38,614 bases of DNA from Minisyncoccota bacterium (GTDB lineage: Bacteria; Patescibacteriota; Minisyncoccia; Phycocordibacterales; JAXHMZ01): assembly GCA_040879625.1 (NCBI GenBank), contig JBBDJZ010000008.1, positions 1-38,614 on the forward strand. The letters run 5' to 3'. The notes below the pieces were generated by a model, which saw only the letters and a program-made list of their open reading frames with translations, did no database searches and had not been told where the DNA came from. The position numbers and the translations under genes were made by a program. Numbering within the stretch: the stretch's first letter is position 1; each line of letters begins with the position of its first letter. Shown one piece after another: positions 803 to 24,468 of the stretch.

Positions 803-2335
803 TTACCGAGCGTACTCGGTTACTCGAGCTTCACGAATAACGTTCACCTTTATTTCGCCAGGGTAGCGAAGCTCTCCTTCTATTTTGCGAGCAATTCCTT
901 TAGCAAGTTCGAGCGCCTGCAGATCTGTTACTTTTTCGGGGGTTACGAAGACTCGTATTTCACGGCCAGCTTGCAGGGCGTATGCTTTTTCTACCCCCTC
1001 AAATGTGAGCGCGATGTCCTCCAAATCACTAAGTCTTTTGAGATAATTGTCCACGGTGTCCTTTCTCGCTCCTGGCCGAGAAGCTGAAATACTGTCTGAA
1101 ACCTGAACAATTTTTGACTCGAGACTTTCAAATGGATATTCTTCGTGATGTGCCTGCATTGCAACAATAATTTCTTTTTTTGCTCCAAACTTTTCTAAAA
1201 TACGTTTTCCAATTTCAACATGAGAACCTTGCGCTTCATGGTCTATTGCCTTTCCAATGTCATGAACGAGACCTGCTGTTTTTGCAACCATGACATCGGC
1301 GCCAACTTCTTCAGCAATCATGCCCGAAAGGTGTGCAACTTCAATTGAGTGACTTAATACGTTTTGTCCGTAGCTACTTCGAAAGTGTAACCTTCCAAGA
1401 ATAGAGACAATGCGGCTATCCAAATTATAAATACCACACTCATACACCGCTTCTTCCCCGCGTTCTTTTATAACCTTGCTCACTTCTACTTCTGCTTTTA
1501 GAACCTCTTCTTCAATTTTAGTTGGTTGGATACGTCCGTCTCGAATCAGGTTTTCAAGTGCAATTTGAGCAACTTGTCTACGGACGGGATCAAAACTAGA
1601 GATGAGAATCGCATTTGGAGTATCGTCAATAATGAGCTCAACTCCAGCAACTTTTTCAAACGCTCGGATATTTCTACCTTCTTTTCCAATAATTTTACCC
1701 TTTATATCTTCGCTTTCGAGAGAGACAAGCGTAGACATAATTTCAGGCGCAATTGATTTTCCGAGTCTTTGTATTGTGCTTGTTAGTATCTCGCGTGCTT
1801 TTGTTTGAAAGCTTTCCTCGCCTGTTATTTCAAGTTTGTGCAAGCGATGAAGGATGTCTTCTTCCTTTTCTTTTGTGATAAGAGTTAGCATTTCATGCTC
1901 AGCTTCGCTTTGTGTCATTTCCGCAACATCCCCCAGTTTTTGCTTGAGTTCCTTTTCAAGAGCGCTAAGTGTCGCTGAATAATGTTCGATTTGTTCGGTT
2001 TTTTCTTTTAGTTCTGCACCGTCAGAATCAAGAATAAGTTGGCGCTTGTCGAGCAATTCCTCTCTTTTTATAAGTCTGTTTTCAGTTGTACGCGCCTTTT
2101 TTTCAACATCGTCTACGTCTCTCAGTGCTCGCTCTCTCACTTCGTCCGCTCTCCTTTGTGCATCAGCTAAAATATTCTTCGCTTCTTCTCGGGCGTTTAA
2201 AAGAATCTGCTTTACTTCAAGCTCCATAGATCCTTTTTTCCCAAGAGAGACAAGCAGTCGCAAAAAATAGCCCGCAGCGATGCCAATAACGAGCGCGAAT
2301 GACATATAAAGAATGAGAAGGGTGTCTTCAACCAT
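803..2335 (-). CDS. rny: Ribonuclease Y (N-terminal TM helix, KH domain, HD domain)
   Basis: KH motif GKEGRNIRAFE and HD motif LVHDIGKA. I place the start at the internal ATG at 2335 (MVEDTLLILY...). The longer ORF start at 2413 lies inside the clpP terminator hairpin. Confidence 0.9.
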   Translation of the reverse strand: MVEDTLLILYMSFALVIGIAAGYFLRLLVSLGKKGSMELEVKQILLNAREEAKNILADAQRRADEVRERALRDVDDVEKKARTTENRLIKREELLDKRQLILDSDGAELKEKTEQIEHYSATLSALEKELKQKLGDVAEMTQSEAEHEMLTLITKEKEEDILHRLHKLEITGEESFQTKAREILTSTIQRLGKSIAPEIMSTLVSLESEDIKGKIIGKEGRNIRAFEKVAGVELIIDDTPNAILISSFDPVRRQVAQIALENLIRDGRIQPTKIEEEVLKAEVEVSKVIKERGEEAVYECGIYNLDSRIVSILGRLHFRSSYGQNVLSHSIEVAHLSGMIAEEVGADVMVAKTAGLVHDIGKAIDHEAQGSHVEIGKRILEKFGAKKEIIVAMQAHHEEYPFESLESKIVQVSDSISASRPGARKDTVDNYLKRLSDLEDIALTFEGVEKAYALQAGREIRVFVTPEKVTDLQALELAKGIARKIEGELRYPGEIKVNVIREARVTEYAR

Positions 2336-2401
2336 GATAGTTCGTATGTACTCTCCTATAATAGGGAATTTAAGGCGCTCTGTCGAACCAGAGTCCGATT
2401 T

Positions 2402-2431
2402 AAAAGGCTTCACCGTAAAGTGAAGCCTTTT
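2402..2431 (-). terminator. Intrinsic terminator downstream of clpP
   Basis: AAAAGGCTTCAC (2402-2413) pairs with GTGAAGCCTTTT (2420-2431) as a perfect 12-bp stem. The stem ends in a U-run on the minus strand. Confidence 0.6.
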
Positions 2432-2449
2432 AAAAACGGAAAGAAAAAT

Positions 2450-3043
2450 CTATTTTTTCAACAGGGGTTTGACAAGTACGCTGTCAATAAGGCCGTATTT
2501 CTTAGCTTCTTCGGCATCCATAAAAAAATCTCTTTCTACGTCGGCCTGTATTTTCTCAATTTTTTGACCAGTTCGTTCAGCGAGAATCTTATTAATTGTT
2601 TCTCGAGTACGAATAATATGTCGCGCGGTAATCTCAATGTCCGTCGCTTGACCTCCAACATTTGAAACCCATGGCTGATGGATCATTACCTCTGCATTTG
2701 GAAGGGCAGAACGCTTTCCTGGTGTTCCTGCTGCTAAAATAACAGCCCCCATAGAAGCAGCGAGACCAACGCATGTCGTTGCAACCTCTGCGTTAATGTG
2801 ATGCATGGTATCAACAATTGCAAGACCCGCTGTCGTTGATCCTCCGGGAGAATTTACATAGAGGTTGATATCTTTTTTCGGGTCTTCTTTTTCGAGAAAG
2901 AGAAGTTGCGCAATAATAGTATTCGCTACAGCGTCGTCTATTGCCCCACCCAAGAAAATAATACGATCTTTTAAGAGGCGTGAGTAAATATCATACGCTC
3001 GTTCTCCGAACTGTTCTTTTTCAATGACTGTTGGTATAAGCAT
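2450..3043 (-). CDS. clpP: ATP-dependent Clp protease proteolytic subunit
   Basis: 197 aa. Canonical S14 motifs NSPGG, AASMG (Ser), MIHQP (His) and ERD (Asp). Confidence 0.95.
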
Positions 3044-3084
3044 GGTGTTAATGGTACGAATCCTTGGGGTGAAGTCAAGAATAG

Positions 3085-4167
3085 TTACTTTTGATTTTCT
3101 AGATATGTAAACACACTTGCGTTAGCAAGCTGTGTTTCCACGTATATTTCTGCTCGTTCTTTATCAGCGGTCGGGTTGTGTTCTAAGAGATGAGAAACTT
3201 GATGGTCAACCTCCTCTTTCTTTGGGGTAAGATTTTCAACTGTCGCAATCTTATTAAGAATAAGTTGCATTTTAGCCCTGTTTTCTGCGTGGGGCCTCCA
3301 TTCTTTTAGCAGTTCTTCTACCGTTTTTCCCGCCTGAGTAAGATACTCTTCTAGCTTTAATCCTGACGCTGAAACATCTGCAGTAAACTGCGCCATCATA
3401 CTTTGAAGTTCGCTCTCAATAATCATGGTTGGAAGGGTAATTGTTGATTCCTCAAGAATTTTTTCCATAAGAGCCAAGCGGTGTTTTTCGTTAGCTTGGT
3501 TTTCTTTGTGTTTTTTCAAATCTTCTCGAACTGTTTGTGTGAATTCCTCGACCGTTTTCATTGAAGAAATTTTTTGCACCTTTTCGTCATCAAGAGGGGA
3601 TGGCTCATCAGTCTCTTTTGGTTCCTCGTTCTTGTTCTCGCTTGTTTCTTTTAAAGCCTCGGTTTCCTCTCCTTGATTTTCACGCCTATCAAGTTCTTTT
3701 CTTACTTCAAGTAGTGCGCGCCGAACCTCACCTTCGTCAAGTATCACCTCGCCTTTTGTACGGTTCAGTTCTTGCGCAATTTTTTTATAGTCTCCGATTT
3801 CTACTGCGGGCATGAGGGGCGTTTGAATCCTGAATTCAACAGGGTTGCCGGGCGCAATTTTGGTAAAACGTACCTCCGGTCGTCCAAATATTTCAAGCTT
3901 TTTTTCACGAATAATCGAGGGGTAAAGCTCGTTTAGTGTGCGGGTTGCAACTTCTTCTAGAAGCGCTGTTTCTGAAACGTGCTTCTTGATGACCGCTTCT
4001 GGTATCGAGCCTTTTCGAAAACCATCAAGAGAGAGGTTTTCAGAGAAGAACTGCAAAGCAGAATCCTTGTGCTTCTCGAGGGTGTCAAGTGAAAGGGTCC
4101 CTGTTATTACCGCTTCGTTATGCTCATTTGTTTCTACGGTTATGTTGTTCTCTGTAATGATTGACAT
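3085..4167 (-). CDS. tig: Trigger factor lacking the central FKBP-type PPIase domain
   Basis: The N-terminal ribosome-binding signature GFRKGSIP and a C-terminal TF domain are present. An acidic linker sits where the PPIase domain is expected. Start chosen at ATG 4167 (MSIITENN...). The tig-clpP adjacency is conserved. Confidence 0.8.
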
Positions 4168-4304
4168 GGTAATTAAATTAAGCCAAAAGCATACTATACG
4201 CATTTGAGGAGTTTCGTGCAAATGAGCACGCTCAACTCTGAAAGAAAGCAGATAAAAGACACCGCCACTTGGACGTTCTGCTGCTTTGCATTCTTGCGTT
4301 TTGA

Positions 4305-17328: not shown

Positions 17329-17456
17329 AATTGCTCCCTATAAGGGTTCACGGTGAGCATCACCGTGAGGCGGGCGCGACACTAAAGTGGTGTTCGCACC
17401 TCACTCTGTTGCTGGTACTCTTTCGAGTATATGAATGTCCCTCCCTCTCCCTTCTG
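17329..17456 (-). ncRNA. Conserved structured 5' element, copy A
   Basis: Block 17347-17456 aligns with 17882-17991. It contains a GAAA-tetraloop hairpin, an ACAC/GUGU hairpin and a 9-bp UCACGGUGA/UCACCGUGA hairpin. Confidence 0.45.
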
Positions 17457-17461
17457 ATTTT

Positions 17462-17862: not shown

Positions 17863-17991
17863 CAGCAGTCTCTCCCAAGACTTCACGGTGAATATGACCG
17901 TGAGGTGGGCGCAACACAAGTTTGTGTAGCACCCTACTCTCTGTAGTTACACTCTTTCGAGTAAATGAATGTGCCGCCCCTCTCCCTTCTG
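17863..17991 (-). ncRNA. Conserved structured 5' element, copy B
   Basis: Paralog of 17329-17456 (block 17882-17991). Confidence 0.45.
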
Positions 17992-17996
17992 GGGCA

Positions 17997-18024
17997 AGTA
18001 TATGATTTTATGTGTTCTTGTCAA
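17997..18024 (-). promoter_or_regulatory. Promoter of unit B, TTGACA-N16-TATACT
   Basis: The -35 is the reverse complement of 18019-18024 and the -10 is the reverse complement of 17997-18002. Confidence 0.6.
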
Positions 18025-22389: not shown

Positions 22390-22417
22390 TTGACATATTA
22401 TCAATATGTGTTATTAT
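22390..22417 (+). promoter_or_regulatory. Promoter TTGACA-N16-TATTAT(ACT)
   Basis: -35 at 22390-22395 and -10 at 22412-22417. It shares GTGTTATTATACT with the promoter at 23751. Confidence 0.6.
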
Positions 22418-22445
22418 ACTGAAGTAGGTTCCTTAAGGAGGAATT

Positions 22446-22709
22446 ATGCTTGTCAGCAGGCGTGACGACGGTGCAAACAGGGCCAGTAGGGCTCGCAGGA
22501 AGAGCAGGGGCTCGGCAGCGCGGGATGCGCAACTCGAACTCGAACTCGAGGACGAACTCCAAGCTCTGCAGGGGGAACTCCAAGCTCTGCAGGACGAAAT
22601 CTACGACTGCTGGGCCTTCCTAGAGTTTCCTCTCGTGTGCGACTTAGACATGGGCGAGGTGCCTCCTGTCGGGTGTTACTGGGACGACGCAACCTCGGCC
22701 GACTACTAA
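22446..22709 (+). CDS. Hypothetical 87-aa protein: Arg-rich N-terminus, heptad-repeat middle, Cys/aromatic C-terminus
   Basis: Strong SD AAGGAGG lies 4 nt upstream. The patch is GC-rich and contains in-frame DNA tandem repeats. I recognise no family. Confidence 0.5.
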   Translation: MLVSRRDDGANRASRARRKSRGSAARDAQLELELEDELQALQGELQALQDEIYDCWAFLEFPLVCDLDMGEVPPVGCYWDDATSADY

Positions 22710-22788
22710 GCAACCTCCTCCATTCACATCACACAGGCCAGCTTCTCACGAGGCTGGTCACTTACTTTATACAAGCACAGGGAAAAAC

Positions 22789-22816
22789 TTGACAAAAGAC
22801 AATTACTAGATATAAT
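22789..22816 (+). promoter_or_regulatory. Consensus promoter TTGACA-N16-TATAAT
   Basis: -35 at 22789-22794 and -10 at 22811-22816. Confidence 0.7.
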
Positions 22817-22823
22817 ATTTACC

Positions 22824-22853
22824 CAACCTAGCAATAGGTTGTTTGATCTTTTT
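22824..22853 (+). promoter_or_regulatory. 5'-terminal hairpin plus U-tract in the leader of the ClpP-like gene (attenuator or stabiliser)
   Basis: CAACCTA-GCAA-TAGGTTG is a 7-bp stem with a GNRA-type loop. It is followed by TTTGATCTTTTT and starts at about the predicted TSS. Confidence 0.4.
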
Positions 22854-22893
22854 ATCCAAAACACATTTCTAGGCCCTTGAAGGAGAGGTAGTT

Positions 22894-23403
22894 GTGAAAG
22901 ATGAGTCTGAGCAAAAAGGACACCTCGATCCGCTCTGGTTTGGTGGTCGGGTGGACTACCCCTCTGTCAACCGTCTCGTTGATCAGATTACAGAACTGAC
23001 CCCAGAAGAAGGAATGCTTGAAGTAATCATTTCCTCGTTCGGAGGATATAACATCCCAGCGATTGATTTCGAAGTGTGGCTGTCGAGGTTTGAGAGAAAG
23101 GGAAACCTGCGGGCGATTGCTGGAACCGTTGTTGCTTCTGCTGGACTCACTTTGTTCTTGGGGTTCGAGCGGAGAACTGCGATTCAGAGATCCGTACTTA
23201 GATTTCATCACCTTTCGCTTTCTTCCGACAACAATGATTCGATGGACGAACTTCAACTCAAGCAGGAGGAGTTAAGCTTAATCGATTTCGTCGAGAAAAG
23301 GACGGGATTCACTCGCGCTCAAATCAAGGGCTACATGGATGACCGTACTTCTTTGTCTGGAGAGGATCTTTTTCTCTTGGGACTCTGCAATGAAAGACTA
23401 TAG
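22894..23403 (+). CDS. Truncated ClpP-like (peptidase S14 fold) protein
   Basis: It aligns by eye with the clpP in this window: SSFGGYNIPAIDF versus [18 protein letters not shown] versus AASMG (Ser), RFHH versus MIHQP (His), MDDR versus ERD (Asp). It lacks the N-terminal axial region. It has a GTG start with an AGGAG SD. Confidence 0.6.
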   Translation: MKDESEQKGHLDPLWFGGRVDYPSVNRLVDQITELTPEEGMLEVIISSFGGYNIPAIDFEVWLSRFERKGNLRAIAGTVVASAGLTLFLGFERRTAIQRSVLRFHHLSLSSDNNDSMDELQLKQEELSLIDFVEKRTGFTRAQIKGYMDDRTSLSGEDLFLLGLCNERL

Positions 23404-23435
23404 ACCGCCCCTGTGTTACAGGAGGCGGTCTTTTT
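23403..23435 (+). terminator. Intrinsic terminator
   Basis: GACCGCC-CCTGT-GTT-ACAGG-A-GGCGGTC is followed by TTTTT. Confidence 0.8.
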
Positions 23436-23473
23436 GATATACTACTTGTATAGTAGTTAAATAACATACAAAT

Positions 23474-23677
23474 ATGAATCCAGAAAACATGGGGGGTCCA
23501 ATTGGAAGTCCTGAAGAAGAAGAGATGGGACGGTTGGTGGAAGAGCGAGGAGCACTAAATGAGGAACTCATGCAAAATGCTGCAGGGGGCACGCTTAGTG
23601 ACGAGGCTATCGAAGCTAAGCAGAGGCGTATTGAGGAGATTGATGCAGTTCTTGCTAGTAGGTCAAACCGAGAGTAA
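23474..23677 (+). CDS. Hypothetical 67-aa acidic, helical protein
   Basis: The ORF sits between two terminators. It has no obvious SD and I recognise no family. Confidence 0.4.
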   Translation: MNPENMGGPIGSPEEEEMGRLVEERGALNEELMQNAAGGTLSDEAIEAKQRRIEEIDAVLASRSNRE

Positions 23678-23707
23678 GCTTGCTTTCATACAATGTCACT
23701 ATAAAAA

Positions 23708-23735
23708 GACCAAGCTCTAACAGCTCGGTCTTTTT
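23708..23735 (+). terminator. Intrinsic terminator
   Basis: GACCAAGC-TCTAACA-GCTCGGTC (one mismatch) is followed by TTTTT. Confidence 0.7.
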
Positions 23736-23750
23736 AATATGTAGAGTGTG

Positions 23751-23779
23751 TTTACAAATATAAATAAACGTGTTATTAT
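23751..23779 (+). promoter_or_regulatory. Promoter TTTACA-N17-TATTAT(ACT)
   Basis: -35 at 23751-23756 and -10 at 23774-23779. Confidence 0.55.
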
Positions 23780-23834
23780 ACTACTAGAGCAGTTTCTCGT
23801 CATTTCTGCCTAAACCACACAGAGGGAGAGTTTC

Positions 23835-24401
23835 GTGAGAAAAGAATTCGCCATAAGCAAAGGTCGCGCGGCTTTTCTCAGCGTTTTTCTGTATGTATTA
23901 CTCGGAATAGCGCTGTCTTCGTTTGTCGTTCCTATGGTTCAAGGAGAACAGCCGCTCCTTCCGTCAATCTACGAATTCCCGCTTGGGCCTGAGTCGGTCA
24001 TCTTTCTCCGGTCCACCGCCTTCAACTCGCTTGAAAGTCAGACAGATTCAACGCCATTCATTACGGCAACGGGGGAAACGACTCGTCCTGGACTGGTTGC
24101 GTTGTCCCGCGATCTTTTGGAAACTATTCCCTACGGATCGATTGTTGAGATTCTCGACATTCGACCTCGAGAAGGGAATCCAAATGGATGCGGGGCGACA
24201 ATGAAGACCATTAGGCGACTTGAAACGCTACCGGGATTAGAACCCGGGCAGTTCCAGGTTGAGGACACAATGCATCCGAGAAAGGAAAACCAACTTGATA
24301 TGTGGTTGGAACACCTTGAGGATGCTCGGCGCTGGGGTGTGTGCGAGATTGTGATTCGTGCCCCAGATCAGGAGTCAGTTCTTTTTGCACTTGGAAAGTA
24401 G
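23835..24401 (+). CDS. Signal-anchored 3D-domain (MltA/RlpA-like double-psi barrel) protein, a putative cell-wall glycosidase
   Basis: N-terminal TM helix, a TAFNSLESQTDSTPFITATGE motif and three spaced Asp contexts (LSRD, VEDTM, QLDMW). It has a GTG start with a GAGGGAGAG SD. Confidence 0.55.
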   Translation: MRKEFAISKGRAAFLSVFLYVLLGIALSSFVVPMVQGEQPLLPSIYEFPLGPESVIFLRSTAFNSLESQTDSTPFITATGETTRPGLVALSRDLLETIPYGSIVEILDIRPREGNPNGCGATMKTIRRLETLPGLEPGQFQVEDTMHPRKENQLDMWLEHLEDARRWGVCEIVIRAPDQESVLFALGK

Positions 24402-24424
24402 TCGAAAGTGTTACGTGTGCGAAC

Positions 24425-24468
24425 AAAAAGGGCGAGCTTCATTTTCTGAAGCTCGCCCTAAATTTTTT
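24425..24468. terminator. Bidirectional intrinsic terminator (3D-domain gene and rpmB)
   Basis: An A-run, then GGGCGAGCTTC-ATTTTCT-GAAGCTCGCCC, then a T-run. Confidence 0.8.

Follow-up and report, generated by a model that had tools for sequence, protein, structure and literature searches.

What kind of locus is the run of four small genes that lies between a ComEC-type MBL gene and rpmB in a Candidatus Paceibacterota genome? The genes, here called open reading frames (ORFs) 1 to 4, come from a metagenome-assembled genome (MAG), and the 38,614 nucleotides of contig JBBDJZ010000008.1 that were analysed are referred to as the window. NCBI lists the four as WDZ74_00455 to WDZ74_00470, each annotated 'hypothetical'. 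An earlier note on this DNA had read them as an accessory island and a single system. Every sequence feature that it listed is present and exceeds chance expectation: the four ORFs are there (Table 1), and its description of the signal density, its ClpP-like and 3D-like labels, the absence of mobility marks and the co-occurrence of the genes all hold, whereas the island and the single system do not. The region is a fixed slot inherited within one Paceibacterota clade and not a mobile island. We consider it somewhat probable that the whole is best described as a lineage-specific, vertically inherited, fast-evolving slot in that clade, and neither a mobile island nor a four-part machine. Such a slot would hold four transcription units, each with its own predicted sigma70-type promoter and intrinsic terminator, and its contents would be an additional ClpP-type protease and its small partner, together with a wall-cutting enzyme and an orphan mini-protein.

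Relatives were located via contigs encoding close ORF4 homologues. They belong to uncultured lineages, labelled L002 to L099, and a metagenome scan supplied only one short extra locus, L011. We compared the slot in eight related lineages (L002/L003, L004/L005, L014, L096, L011, L099, L006 and L015) and found it occupied in all eight. The backbone around it, which runs RNase H, ComEC, SOD (minus strand), MBL, slot, rpmB (minus strand), M50, rpsL, rpsG and fusA, was syntenic in all relatives found. The full order of small ORF, ClpP-like gene, small acidic ORF and 3D protein gene was present in L002/L003, L096 and L014, in the last of which an ORF1-like gene was read in the place of ORF1. L004/L005 had the identical order minus the ORF1 cassette, and in L011 and L099 the slot was seen only partly. 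Overall, the gene order recurs in at least five related uncultured lineages. As the earlier note had stated for the borders, no integrase or transposase was found among the window ORFs, no tRNA in the window and no direct repeats flanking the region. The term 'accessory island' does not fit, since both the slot and the order of its genes have been kept by vertical descent within the fully syntenic backbone of the relatives.

The same comparison shows where the association of the four genes comes apart. In L006 (a Campbellbacteria MAG) and L015, which are outgroups by core-gene identity, the ORF1-type cassette and ORF4 are kept, and an unrelated larger gene and another small acidic one stand where ORF2 and ORF3 would be (Table 1). 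NCBIfam searches with both larger and both acidic replacement proteins gave no match, nor did a PDB search with the 426-amino acid (aa) protein. In L012 and L013, ORF4 occurs without the other three in another genomic context. At 80 ORF4-family loci from other phyla (L016 to L095), we detected no relative of ORF1, ORF2 or ORF3 within about 5 kb. Because co-occurrence breaks in L004, L006, L015, L012, L013 and these 80 loci, a single four-gene system is not supported. Where the genes do occur together, their co-occurrence is inseparable from common descent, since all instances lie in one clade with shared synteny.

The slot also differs from its surroundings in its rate of change. Compared with L002, the flanking proteins were 76-98% identical (MBL 79%) and the slot proteins 66% (ORF4), 47% (ORF2), 39% (ORF3) or undetectable (ORF1), while DNA identity dropped from 70-90% in the flanks to 36-61% between about 22419 and 23844. 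Taking the relatives overall, DNA identity was 33-61% inside this interval and 70-98% in the flanks. The nearest relatives of ORF1 to ORF3 were 41-52% identical in protein, a distance at which synonymous sites would be saturated, and the MBL proteins of lineages sharing the slot position were 53-79% identical. Judged from these alignments, the slot is an unusually fast-evolving divergence hot spot. Against L096 there was a sharp break at about 23830, the ORF3/ORF4 boundary, where identity rises from 33-63% on the left side to values mostly of 60-98% on the right, and the window MBL gene was nearer to L002 than to L096. Taken together, the break and the affinity of MBL suggest that recombination has made a mosaic here or that the short contig is chimeric.

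We scored promoters as matches out of 12 to TTGACA/TATAAT-type hexamers, and terminators by folding energy and z-score versus shuffles. The promoters that the earlier note had placed at 22390, 22789 and 23751 were all recovered (P1, P2 and P4), as were the terminators at 23403, 23708 and 24425 (T2, T3 and T4), and a fourth terminator that it had not listed, T1, follows ORF1. Five promoter sites in the whole 38.6-kb window score at least 11/12, two of them in this region. The position of P1 is kept in L002, L014, L011, L006 and L015. In L002, L004 and L014 an identical-scoring 12/12 promoter precedes ORF2, and TTTACA promoters lie at the equivalent site before ORF4. The T1 stem CCAGCTTC...GAAGCTGG is kept in L002, L014 and L011, and a hairpin equivalent to T4 was found in L002 and L014. 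P1 and P4 have in common the 13-mer GTGTTATTATACT, which forms their extended -10 region and occurs exactly twice, at 22408 and 23770, versus 0.02 occurrences expected. For ORF3, the earlier note had found no promoter. A weak candidate, P3, does exist and overlaps T2. The same overlapping arrangement is present in L002, and this stretch has 74% DNA identity to L002, versus 36-61% on either side.

Shine-Dalgarno (SD) boxes precede three of the four genes, as had been claimed: AAGGAGG for ORF1 (22434-22440), AAGGAG for ORF2 and GAGGGAGAG for ORF4, with ORF3 having none. The contrast with SD-less surroundings is real. A well-placed SD was found in 0 of the 36 other window genes, including rpsL, rpsG, fusA, a tuf-like gene and other ribosomal-protein genes. 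The G+C content at third codon positions (GC3) was 0.70 for ORF1, 0.50 for ORF2 and 0.49 for ORF4, versus 0.28-0.38 for MBL, S7 and EF-G, and the raised values persist in orthologous loci. SD boxes, consensus promoters and raised GC3 in an otherwise SD-less genome suggest that the genes are of foreign descent or that they are expressed under a regime of their own.

We also observed that the ORF2 mRNA leader (22824-22893) opens with a stem-loop at a similar place in the window, L096, L002 and L004, although the sequences differ, and that in several orthologous leaders the ORF2 SD region can pair with a CT-rich stretch upstream. These elements may serve as a stabiliser or as a translational control element.

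Table 1. Coordinates of the genes, expression signals and RNA elements described in the text (window numbering unless a lineage is given; energies in kcal/mol).
Feature	Position	Strand	Description
P1, promoter of ORF1	22390..22417	+	sigma70-type; TTGACA-16-TATTAT, TG-extended, 11/12
ORF1, WDZ74_00455	22446..22709	+	87 aa; orphan small protein in conserved cassette
T1, terminator 3' of ORF1	22736..22759	+	intrinsic hairpin; -17.3, z = -6.4
P2, promoter of ORF2	22789..22816	+	consensus; TTGACA-16-TATAAT, 12/12
5' stem-loop	22824-22841	+	downstream of P2, in leader of ORF2
ORF2, WDZ74_00460	22894..23403	+	169 aa; divergent ClpP-family (S14) paralogue
T2, terminator 3' of ORF2	23402..23436	+	-22.4, z = -6.2
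P3, weak candidate promoter of ORF3	23415-23443	+	GTTACA-17-TATACT with TG; overlaps T2
ORF3, WDZ74_00465	23474..23677	+	67 aa; acidic (pI 4.4), helical, no SD
T3, terminator 3' of ORF3	23702..23736	+	inverted repeat; -16.0, z = -6.8
P4, promoter of ORF4	23751..23779	+	TTTACA-17-TATTAT, TG-extended, 10/12
ORF4, WDZ74_00470	23835..24401	+	188 aa; N-terminal transmembrane helix, then double-psi beta-barrel '3D'-like domain
T4, terminator common to ORF4 (+) and rpmB (-)	24429..24459	.	bidirectional; -26.7 (z = -8.4) and -28.5
Replacement genes at ORF2/ORF3 place	L006 4478-5907; L015 3342-4872		unrelated 394/426-aa protein plus 68-69-aa acidic protein
tig-clpP-RNase Y cluster	803-4221	-	tig 3085-4221; clpP 2450-3043 (Pfam E = 3.5e-81); RNase Y 803-2413
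Leader RNA, window copies	17331-17457 and 17866-17992	-	duplicated, structured
Leader RNA, copies elsewhere	L010 952-1081; L010 395-526; L004 432-581	-	same structure

The first gene is the most changeable. A cassette of the ORF1 type (promoter, GGGAGG-type SD, ATG, 76-89-aa ORF and terminator) is present in L002, L014, L011, L015, L006 and L096, and the six encoded proteins form a real family of small basic proteins that is marked by a TCxxPK motif; three members (L096, L002 and L011) also have a C-terminal YASSxDF. Pfam had no match to this family, and NCBIfam none to the three members searched. The profile of the six did not match window ORF1 even at E <= 100, tblastn found no ORF1 homologues, and clustering of about 15 billion proteins at 90% left ORF1 as a singleton. 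The earlier note had described ORF1 as basic, heptad-bearing and Cys-rich. The protein has 3 Cys and is basic at its N-terminus only, with an overall pI of 4.2, and the 'heptads' arise from repeats at 22531-22593: a 21-nt tandem duplication (1.9 copies, ELQALQG) plus a 6-nt repeat (3.2 copies, ELELEL). The window ORF1 would thus be a replacement, or a copy diverged past recognition, in a hypervariable small-protein cassette whose promoter, SD and terminator stay while the coding content turns over. The lack of a detectable relationship between ORF1 and the slot family weakens a pairing of precursor peptide and protease, and the two do not obligately co-occur, given that L006 and L015 have the ORF1-type cassette but no ORF2 and L004 has ORF2 but no such cassette.

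It is also conceivable, though rather unlikely, that ORF1 is not a functional protein and that its cassette is decaying or yields only a transcript, the frame being a by-product of GC-rich, repeat-expanded sequence. The missing homologues, the singleton status and the two tandem repeats within the gene are what one would then expect; the codon-usage score is negative, GC3 is high, and alternative frames, those of the opposite strand among them, also hold long ORFs. However, of the six possible frames the annotated one has the best score, and a conserved promoter, strong SD with ATG and terminator frame the same 76-89-aa ORF class in six relatives. Rfam searches (at gathering thresholds over the whole window, and by E-value over the region) returned no credible match, which argues against an RNA-only cassette. 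A structured RNA in place of ORF1 was considered and rejected: the folding z-score was only -2.7 with the terminator hairpin included, and relatives keep the SD and an ORF of the same length class.

None of the four window proteins had a significant Pfam match. On its own, ORF2 had no Pfam match at E <= 1, an NCBIfam match to a ClpP-related head-maturation model at E = 0.0087 and a match to phrog_5410 at E = 2.4e-4; a single-sequence PDB search gave no useful match, a word-index search returned only ORF2 itself, and a scan of the genome contigs with the ORF2 alignment found no relative. The family is rare: when 1.84 billion representatives were scanned exhaustively with HMMER, 17 relatives were found at E <= 1e-3. 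A profile of 11 family sequences matched PDB ClpPs over the full length (E = 8e-17), and 9/11 members matched NCBIfam ClpP models and 7/11 Pfam CLP_protease. The AlphaFold2 (AF2) model of ORF2 (predicted local distance difference test score, pLDDT, 88.3) has the ClpP alpha/beta fold, and the top 50 PDB matches in Foldseek were all ClpP (E about 1e-10, template modelling (TM) score 0.71-0.77). The label 'ClpP-like' is therefore sound, though only via the family profile and the structure.

The residues of the family point to a modified catalytic centre. G50 and G51 (the GG motif), S82 and H105 are invariant. In E. coli ClpP numbering, where the triad is S97, H122 and D171, the Asp171 column is occupied in ORF2 by Arg151, invariant in five close sequences and also Arg in P0130 and P0131, with an acidic residue one position before it. 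ORF2 thus keeps Ser82 and His105 and does not have a complete Ser-His-Asp triad. The N-terminal axial-loop segment, about 20 residues, is missing: profile position 8 corresponds to ClpP residue 21, and the N-terminus of the canonical ClpP encoded in this window is longer by about 20 residues. The N-terminal loops of ClpP dock and gate AAA+ unfoldases. The canonical gene stands beside tig in a cluster that no clpX adjoins (Table 1), so ORF2 is an extra paralogue. Distant short ClpP-like genes (L007 and L009) have unrelated neighbours.

With the oxyanion GG motif, Ser nucleophile and His retained, ORF2 would be a cytoplasmic second ClpP. Because these residues are kept, an Arg occupies the Asp column and the gating loops are gone, its fold and residues suggest that it is probably either an ungated, unfoldase-independent peptidase for small peptides or a modifying subunit in mixed rings with the canonical ClpP.

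ORF3 has the conserved core LxELxxINxEL...LSDEAxxAKxxRxxELE, with the invariant pattern E..N.EL...L..EA...K..R..E, and homologues in L096, L099, L002, L004 and L014. It occurs only in lineages that bear ORF2, plus L099, whose contig ends before the ORF2 position. We detected no terminator between ORF2 and ORF3 in L004 or L014, and ORF3 may be co-transcribed with ORF2 in some relatives. The idea that L006 and L015 encode ORF3 homologues in their small acidic proteins was provisionally rejected: a four-sequence ORF3 profile did not find these proteins, and in hhalign they aligned with ORF3 over 14 columns (P = 0.034) and had only an LSDEA-like patch in common. Since these outgroups have neither ORF2 nor ORF3, the two genes came or went together, probably in a single event. 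Among the four genes, only ORF2 and ORF3 look linked, and ORF3 is most likely a partner or regulator of ORF2, with which it would be gained and lost.

For ORF4, the NCBI call of 155 aa takes an internal Met as its start and so leaves out a conserved transmembrane helix. Because homologues retain the N-terminal helix, we place the start at the GTG at 23835. The family is large, with 364 homologues widespread in Deinococcota, Flavobacteriia, Uhrbacteria and others. A single-sequence PDB search gave no useful match. In the AF2 model (pLDDT 82.8), residues 9-30 form a hydrophobic helix (pLDDT above 90) that is conserved in close homologues and predicted to act as membrane anchor or export signal, and the remainder adopts a double-psi beta-barrel fold. 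Foldseek matched the model to expansins, MltA and YuiC (E = 6e-4 to 5e-3, probability about 1.0, TM about 0.3), and with a 78-sequence profile YuiC was the only PDB match (E = 7.5e-4), the DTxxxxK...D motif being aligned. The Pfam 3D model did not match ORF4 at E <= 1 and matched 7/78 homologues weakly (best E = 0.027). The label '3D-domain' accordingly survives only remotely, by fold and profile.

The conserved residues of ORF4 (T61, D93, D144, D155, Cys119 and Cys170) agree with this placement. D144 and D155 are invariant in the family and D93 nearly so. D144 and D155 align on the aspartates of the YuiC DTG and LDLY motifs with the same 11-residue spacing, and T61 aligns on the Thr of ATGY. 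In YuiC, D151 binds sugar, D162 is catalytic and T91 is an orienting Thr (PMC4499186). ORF4 thus has all three Asp and the Thr, D93 being equated with YuiC D129 from the motif only. By homology and modelled fold, ORF4 is a predicted membrane-anchored, outward-facing protein of YuiC/MltA-like fold, and its sequence marks it as a putative YuiC/MltA-type peptidoglycan lytic transglycosylase. It would most likely cut peptidoglycan glycan strands, in the cell's own wall or possibly in that of a host. Its closest relatives outside the clade are in Deinococcota (Trueperaceae, Deinococcus; 40-53% identity versus 32-36% for other Patescibacteria), and in a rough neighbor-joining tree the Paceibacterota ORF4 proteins stand beside Deinococcota and apart from other Patescibacteria, with L012 and L013 inside the clade. 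These affinities hint at an old transfer between phyla.

Several observations weigh against the slot reading and the roles proposed within it. Four adjacent genes are conserved in several lineages, as a real functional module would show. The Arg at the Asp171 column could mean that ORF2 is catalytically impaired. The co-variation of ORF2 with ORF3 is probably one evolutionary event, so that their linkage is weakly supported, and both the window and L002 have a strong terminator between the two. For ORF4, the scores behind the 3D assignment are modest, and the Pfam 3D model fails.

It is unlikely that the slot is a domesticated remnant of foreign DNA whose source was a phage or another phylum. 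On that view ORF2 would derive from a short phage-type ClpP that matures heads, ORF3 would be an acidic helical protein resembling a scaffold, and ORF4 would be a glycan-cutting enzyme of the lysin type, all keeping their original SD signals. SD boxes and raised GC3 that persist in orthologues of an SD-less genome would be explained, as would the affinity of ORF4 to Deinococcota over other Patescibacteria. The ORF2 model matches short phage ClpP-like proteins (164-176 aa) and cellular ClpP equally well (E about 1e-11), the NCBIfam ClpP-related head-maturation domain is found in 8/11 of the ORF2 family, several members match PHROG head-maturation families, and ORF4 matches phrog_24247 (E = 8e-6). 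However, the window yielded no capsid, portal, terminase or integrase gene and no att-like repeats, and the position is fixed in a conserved backbone even across lineages as divergent in MBL as those described above. The neighbours are those of the backbone (ComEC, SOD, MBL, rpmB, M50 and rpsL) and not of a phage head-maturation module, and the PHROG matches of window ORF2 are weak. Moreover, the best matches of the ORF2 family are cellular ClpP models (2.9e-28 versus 6e-11), and the ORF4 family is chromosomal and widespread.

Slightly less likely still is the reading that follows the earlier note and makes the genes one module. ORF1 would be a precursor or cargo processed by ORF2, ORF3 would serve as a partner or an immunity protein, and ORF4 would be the secreted wall-active effector, which would make the locus a peptide-maturation, toxin/immunity or host-interaction set. 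The window, L096, L002 and L014 do have the four positions side by side in one and the same order; all four genes evolve faster than the flanks, they have atypical SD and GC3 features in common, and ORF4 is predicted to be extracytoplasmic. Yet each gene has a separate promoter and terminator, and the components part company repeatedly: the ORF1-type cassette stands without ORF2 and ORF3 in the two outgroups, ORF2 and ORF3 without the cassette in L004, and ORF4 alone in L012/L013 and 80 other genomes, and ORF1 of the window is not detectably related to the slot family. Immunity proteins to wall hydrolases typically have a signal peptide, which the ORF3 sequence lacks. PADLOC defence models gave no match, and secretion genes were likewise not found. 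A literature search on ClpP plus 3D domain in Patescibacteria turned up nothing relevant.

We think it very unlikely that ORF2 and ORF3 constitute a new unfoldase-independent two-component protease (a gate-less ClpP with a Ser-His-(Arg) centre controlled by ORF3) that, once acquired from another phylum or a phage, has persisted with the hypervariable ORF1 cassette and the outward-facing ORF4 as a rapidly diversifying host-interaction locus of episymbiotic Paceibacterota.

Elsewhere in the window, we observed two strong minus-strand promoters (both 11/12, at 18024 and 17489), each before a shared GC-rich leader of about 125 nt that is followed by a small ORF. SD-like GGGAG sequences precede these small ORFs. 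The leader RNA has three hairpins, one with a GAAA tetraloop, inside a long-range stem. A covariance model was built from three copies, and two further copies were then found, in L010 and L004; each copy precedes a small ORF of one of two families ('MCK...' or 'MCT...'). In the alignment of the five sequences, which was fitted to the covariance model and is thereby biased toward the structure, 96% of cells pair and 12/36 pairs show compensatory changes. Covariation as high was reached in 0/500 shuffles, and slid controls gave 1-2 pairs. An Rfam search with the leader RNA gave no match. We regard it as a candidate new cis-regulatory, riboswitch-like RNA, and it may be more novel than the four-gene slot.

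The slot reading leaves three points of wider interest. The ClpP branch to which ORF2 belongs is rare, has no gate and differs from ClpP in its catalytic centre, and it could show how ClpP-fold peptidases work without unfoldases. ORF4 belongs to an unstudied, widespread family of YuiC-like wall enzymes that Pfam does not capture. Finally, strong SDs on a few fast-evolving, lineage-specific genes in a nearly SD-less genome bear on the partition of translation initiation in candidate-phyla bacteria.

How, then, does the locus compare with known systems? The earlier note had recognised no known system in the combination. The components fit known kinds (ClpP S14, YuiC/MltA-like), and none of them is a new kind of system. 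As in genomic islands and mobile elements, codon composition and expression signals are atypical, content varies among relatives and identity drops at the borders. Unlike them, the slot has no integrase, transposase, tRNA target or flanking repeats, and its position and most of its content are conserved across the clade. ORF2 resembles ClpP (MEROPS S14, PF00574) in fold (TM about 0.75), in its full-length profile match and in its GG, Ser and His residues, and its coexistence with a canonical ClpP recalls ClpP1/ClpP2 pairs. In Listeria, ClpP1 is an atypical paralogue in which Asn replaces the triad Asp (PDB 4JCQ). ORF2 departs from ClpP in lacking the axial gating loops and in the family-conserved Arg at the triad Asp column. 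The window copy is too diverged to be caught by Pfam, its subfamily is very rare, and its companion gene encodes a small acidic protein instead of an AAA+ partner. ORF4 has the double-psi beta-barrel of the YuiC/Sps and MltA proteins (PF06725); its aTaYnS and DTxxxxKxxxxD motifs align to YuiC T91, D151 and D162, and D93 supplies a third conserved Asp. Its membrane segment followed by a single small domain is also the layout of the SpsC group, in which an N-terminal membrane or signal segment precedes a single small catalytic domain (PMC4499186). The ORF4 family differs from YuiC and MltA in having two invariant Cys and in an insertion of about 29 residues that carries a conserved PNGCGAT.

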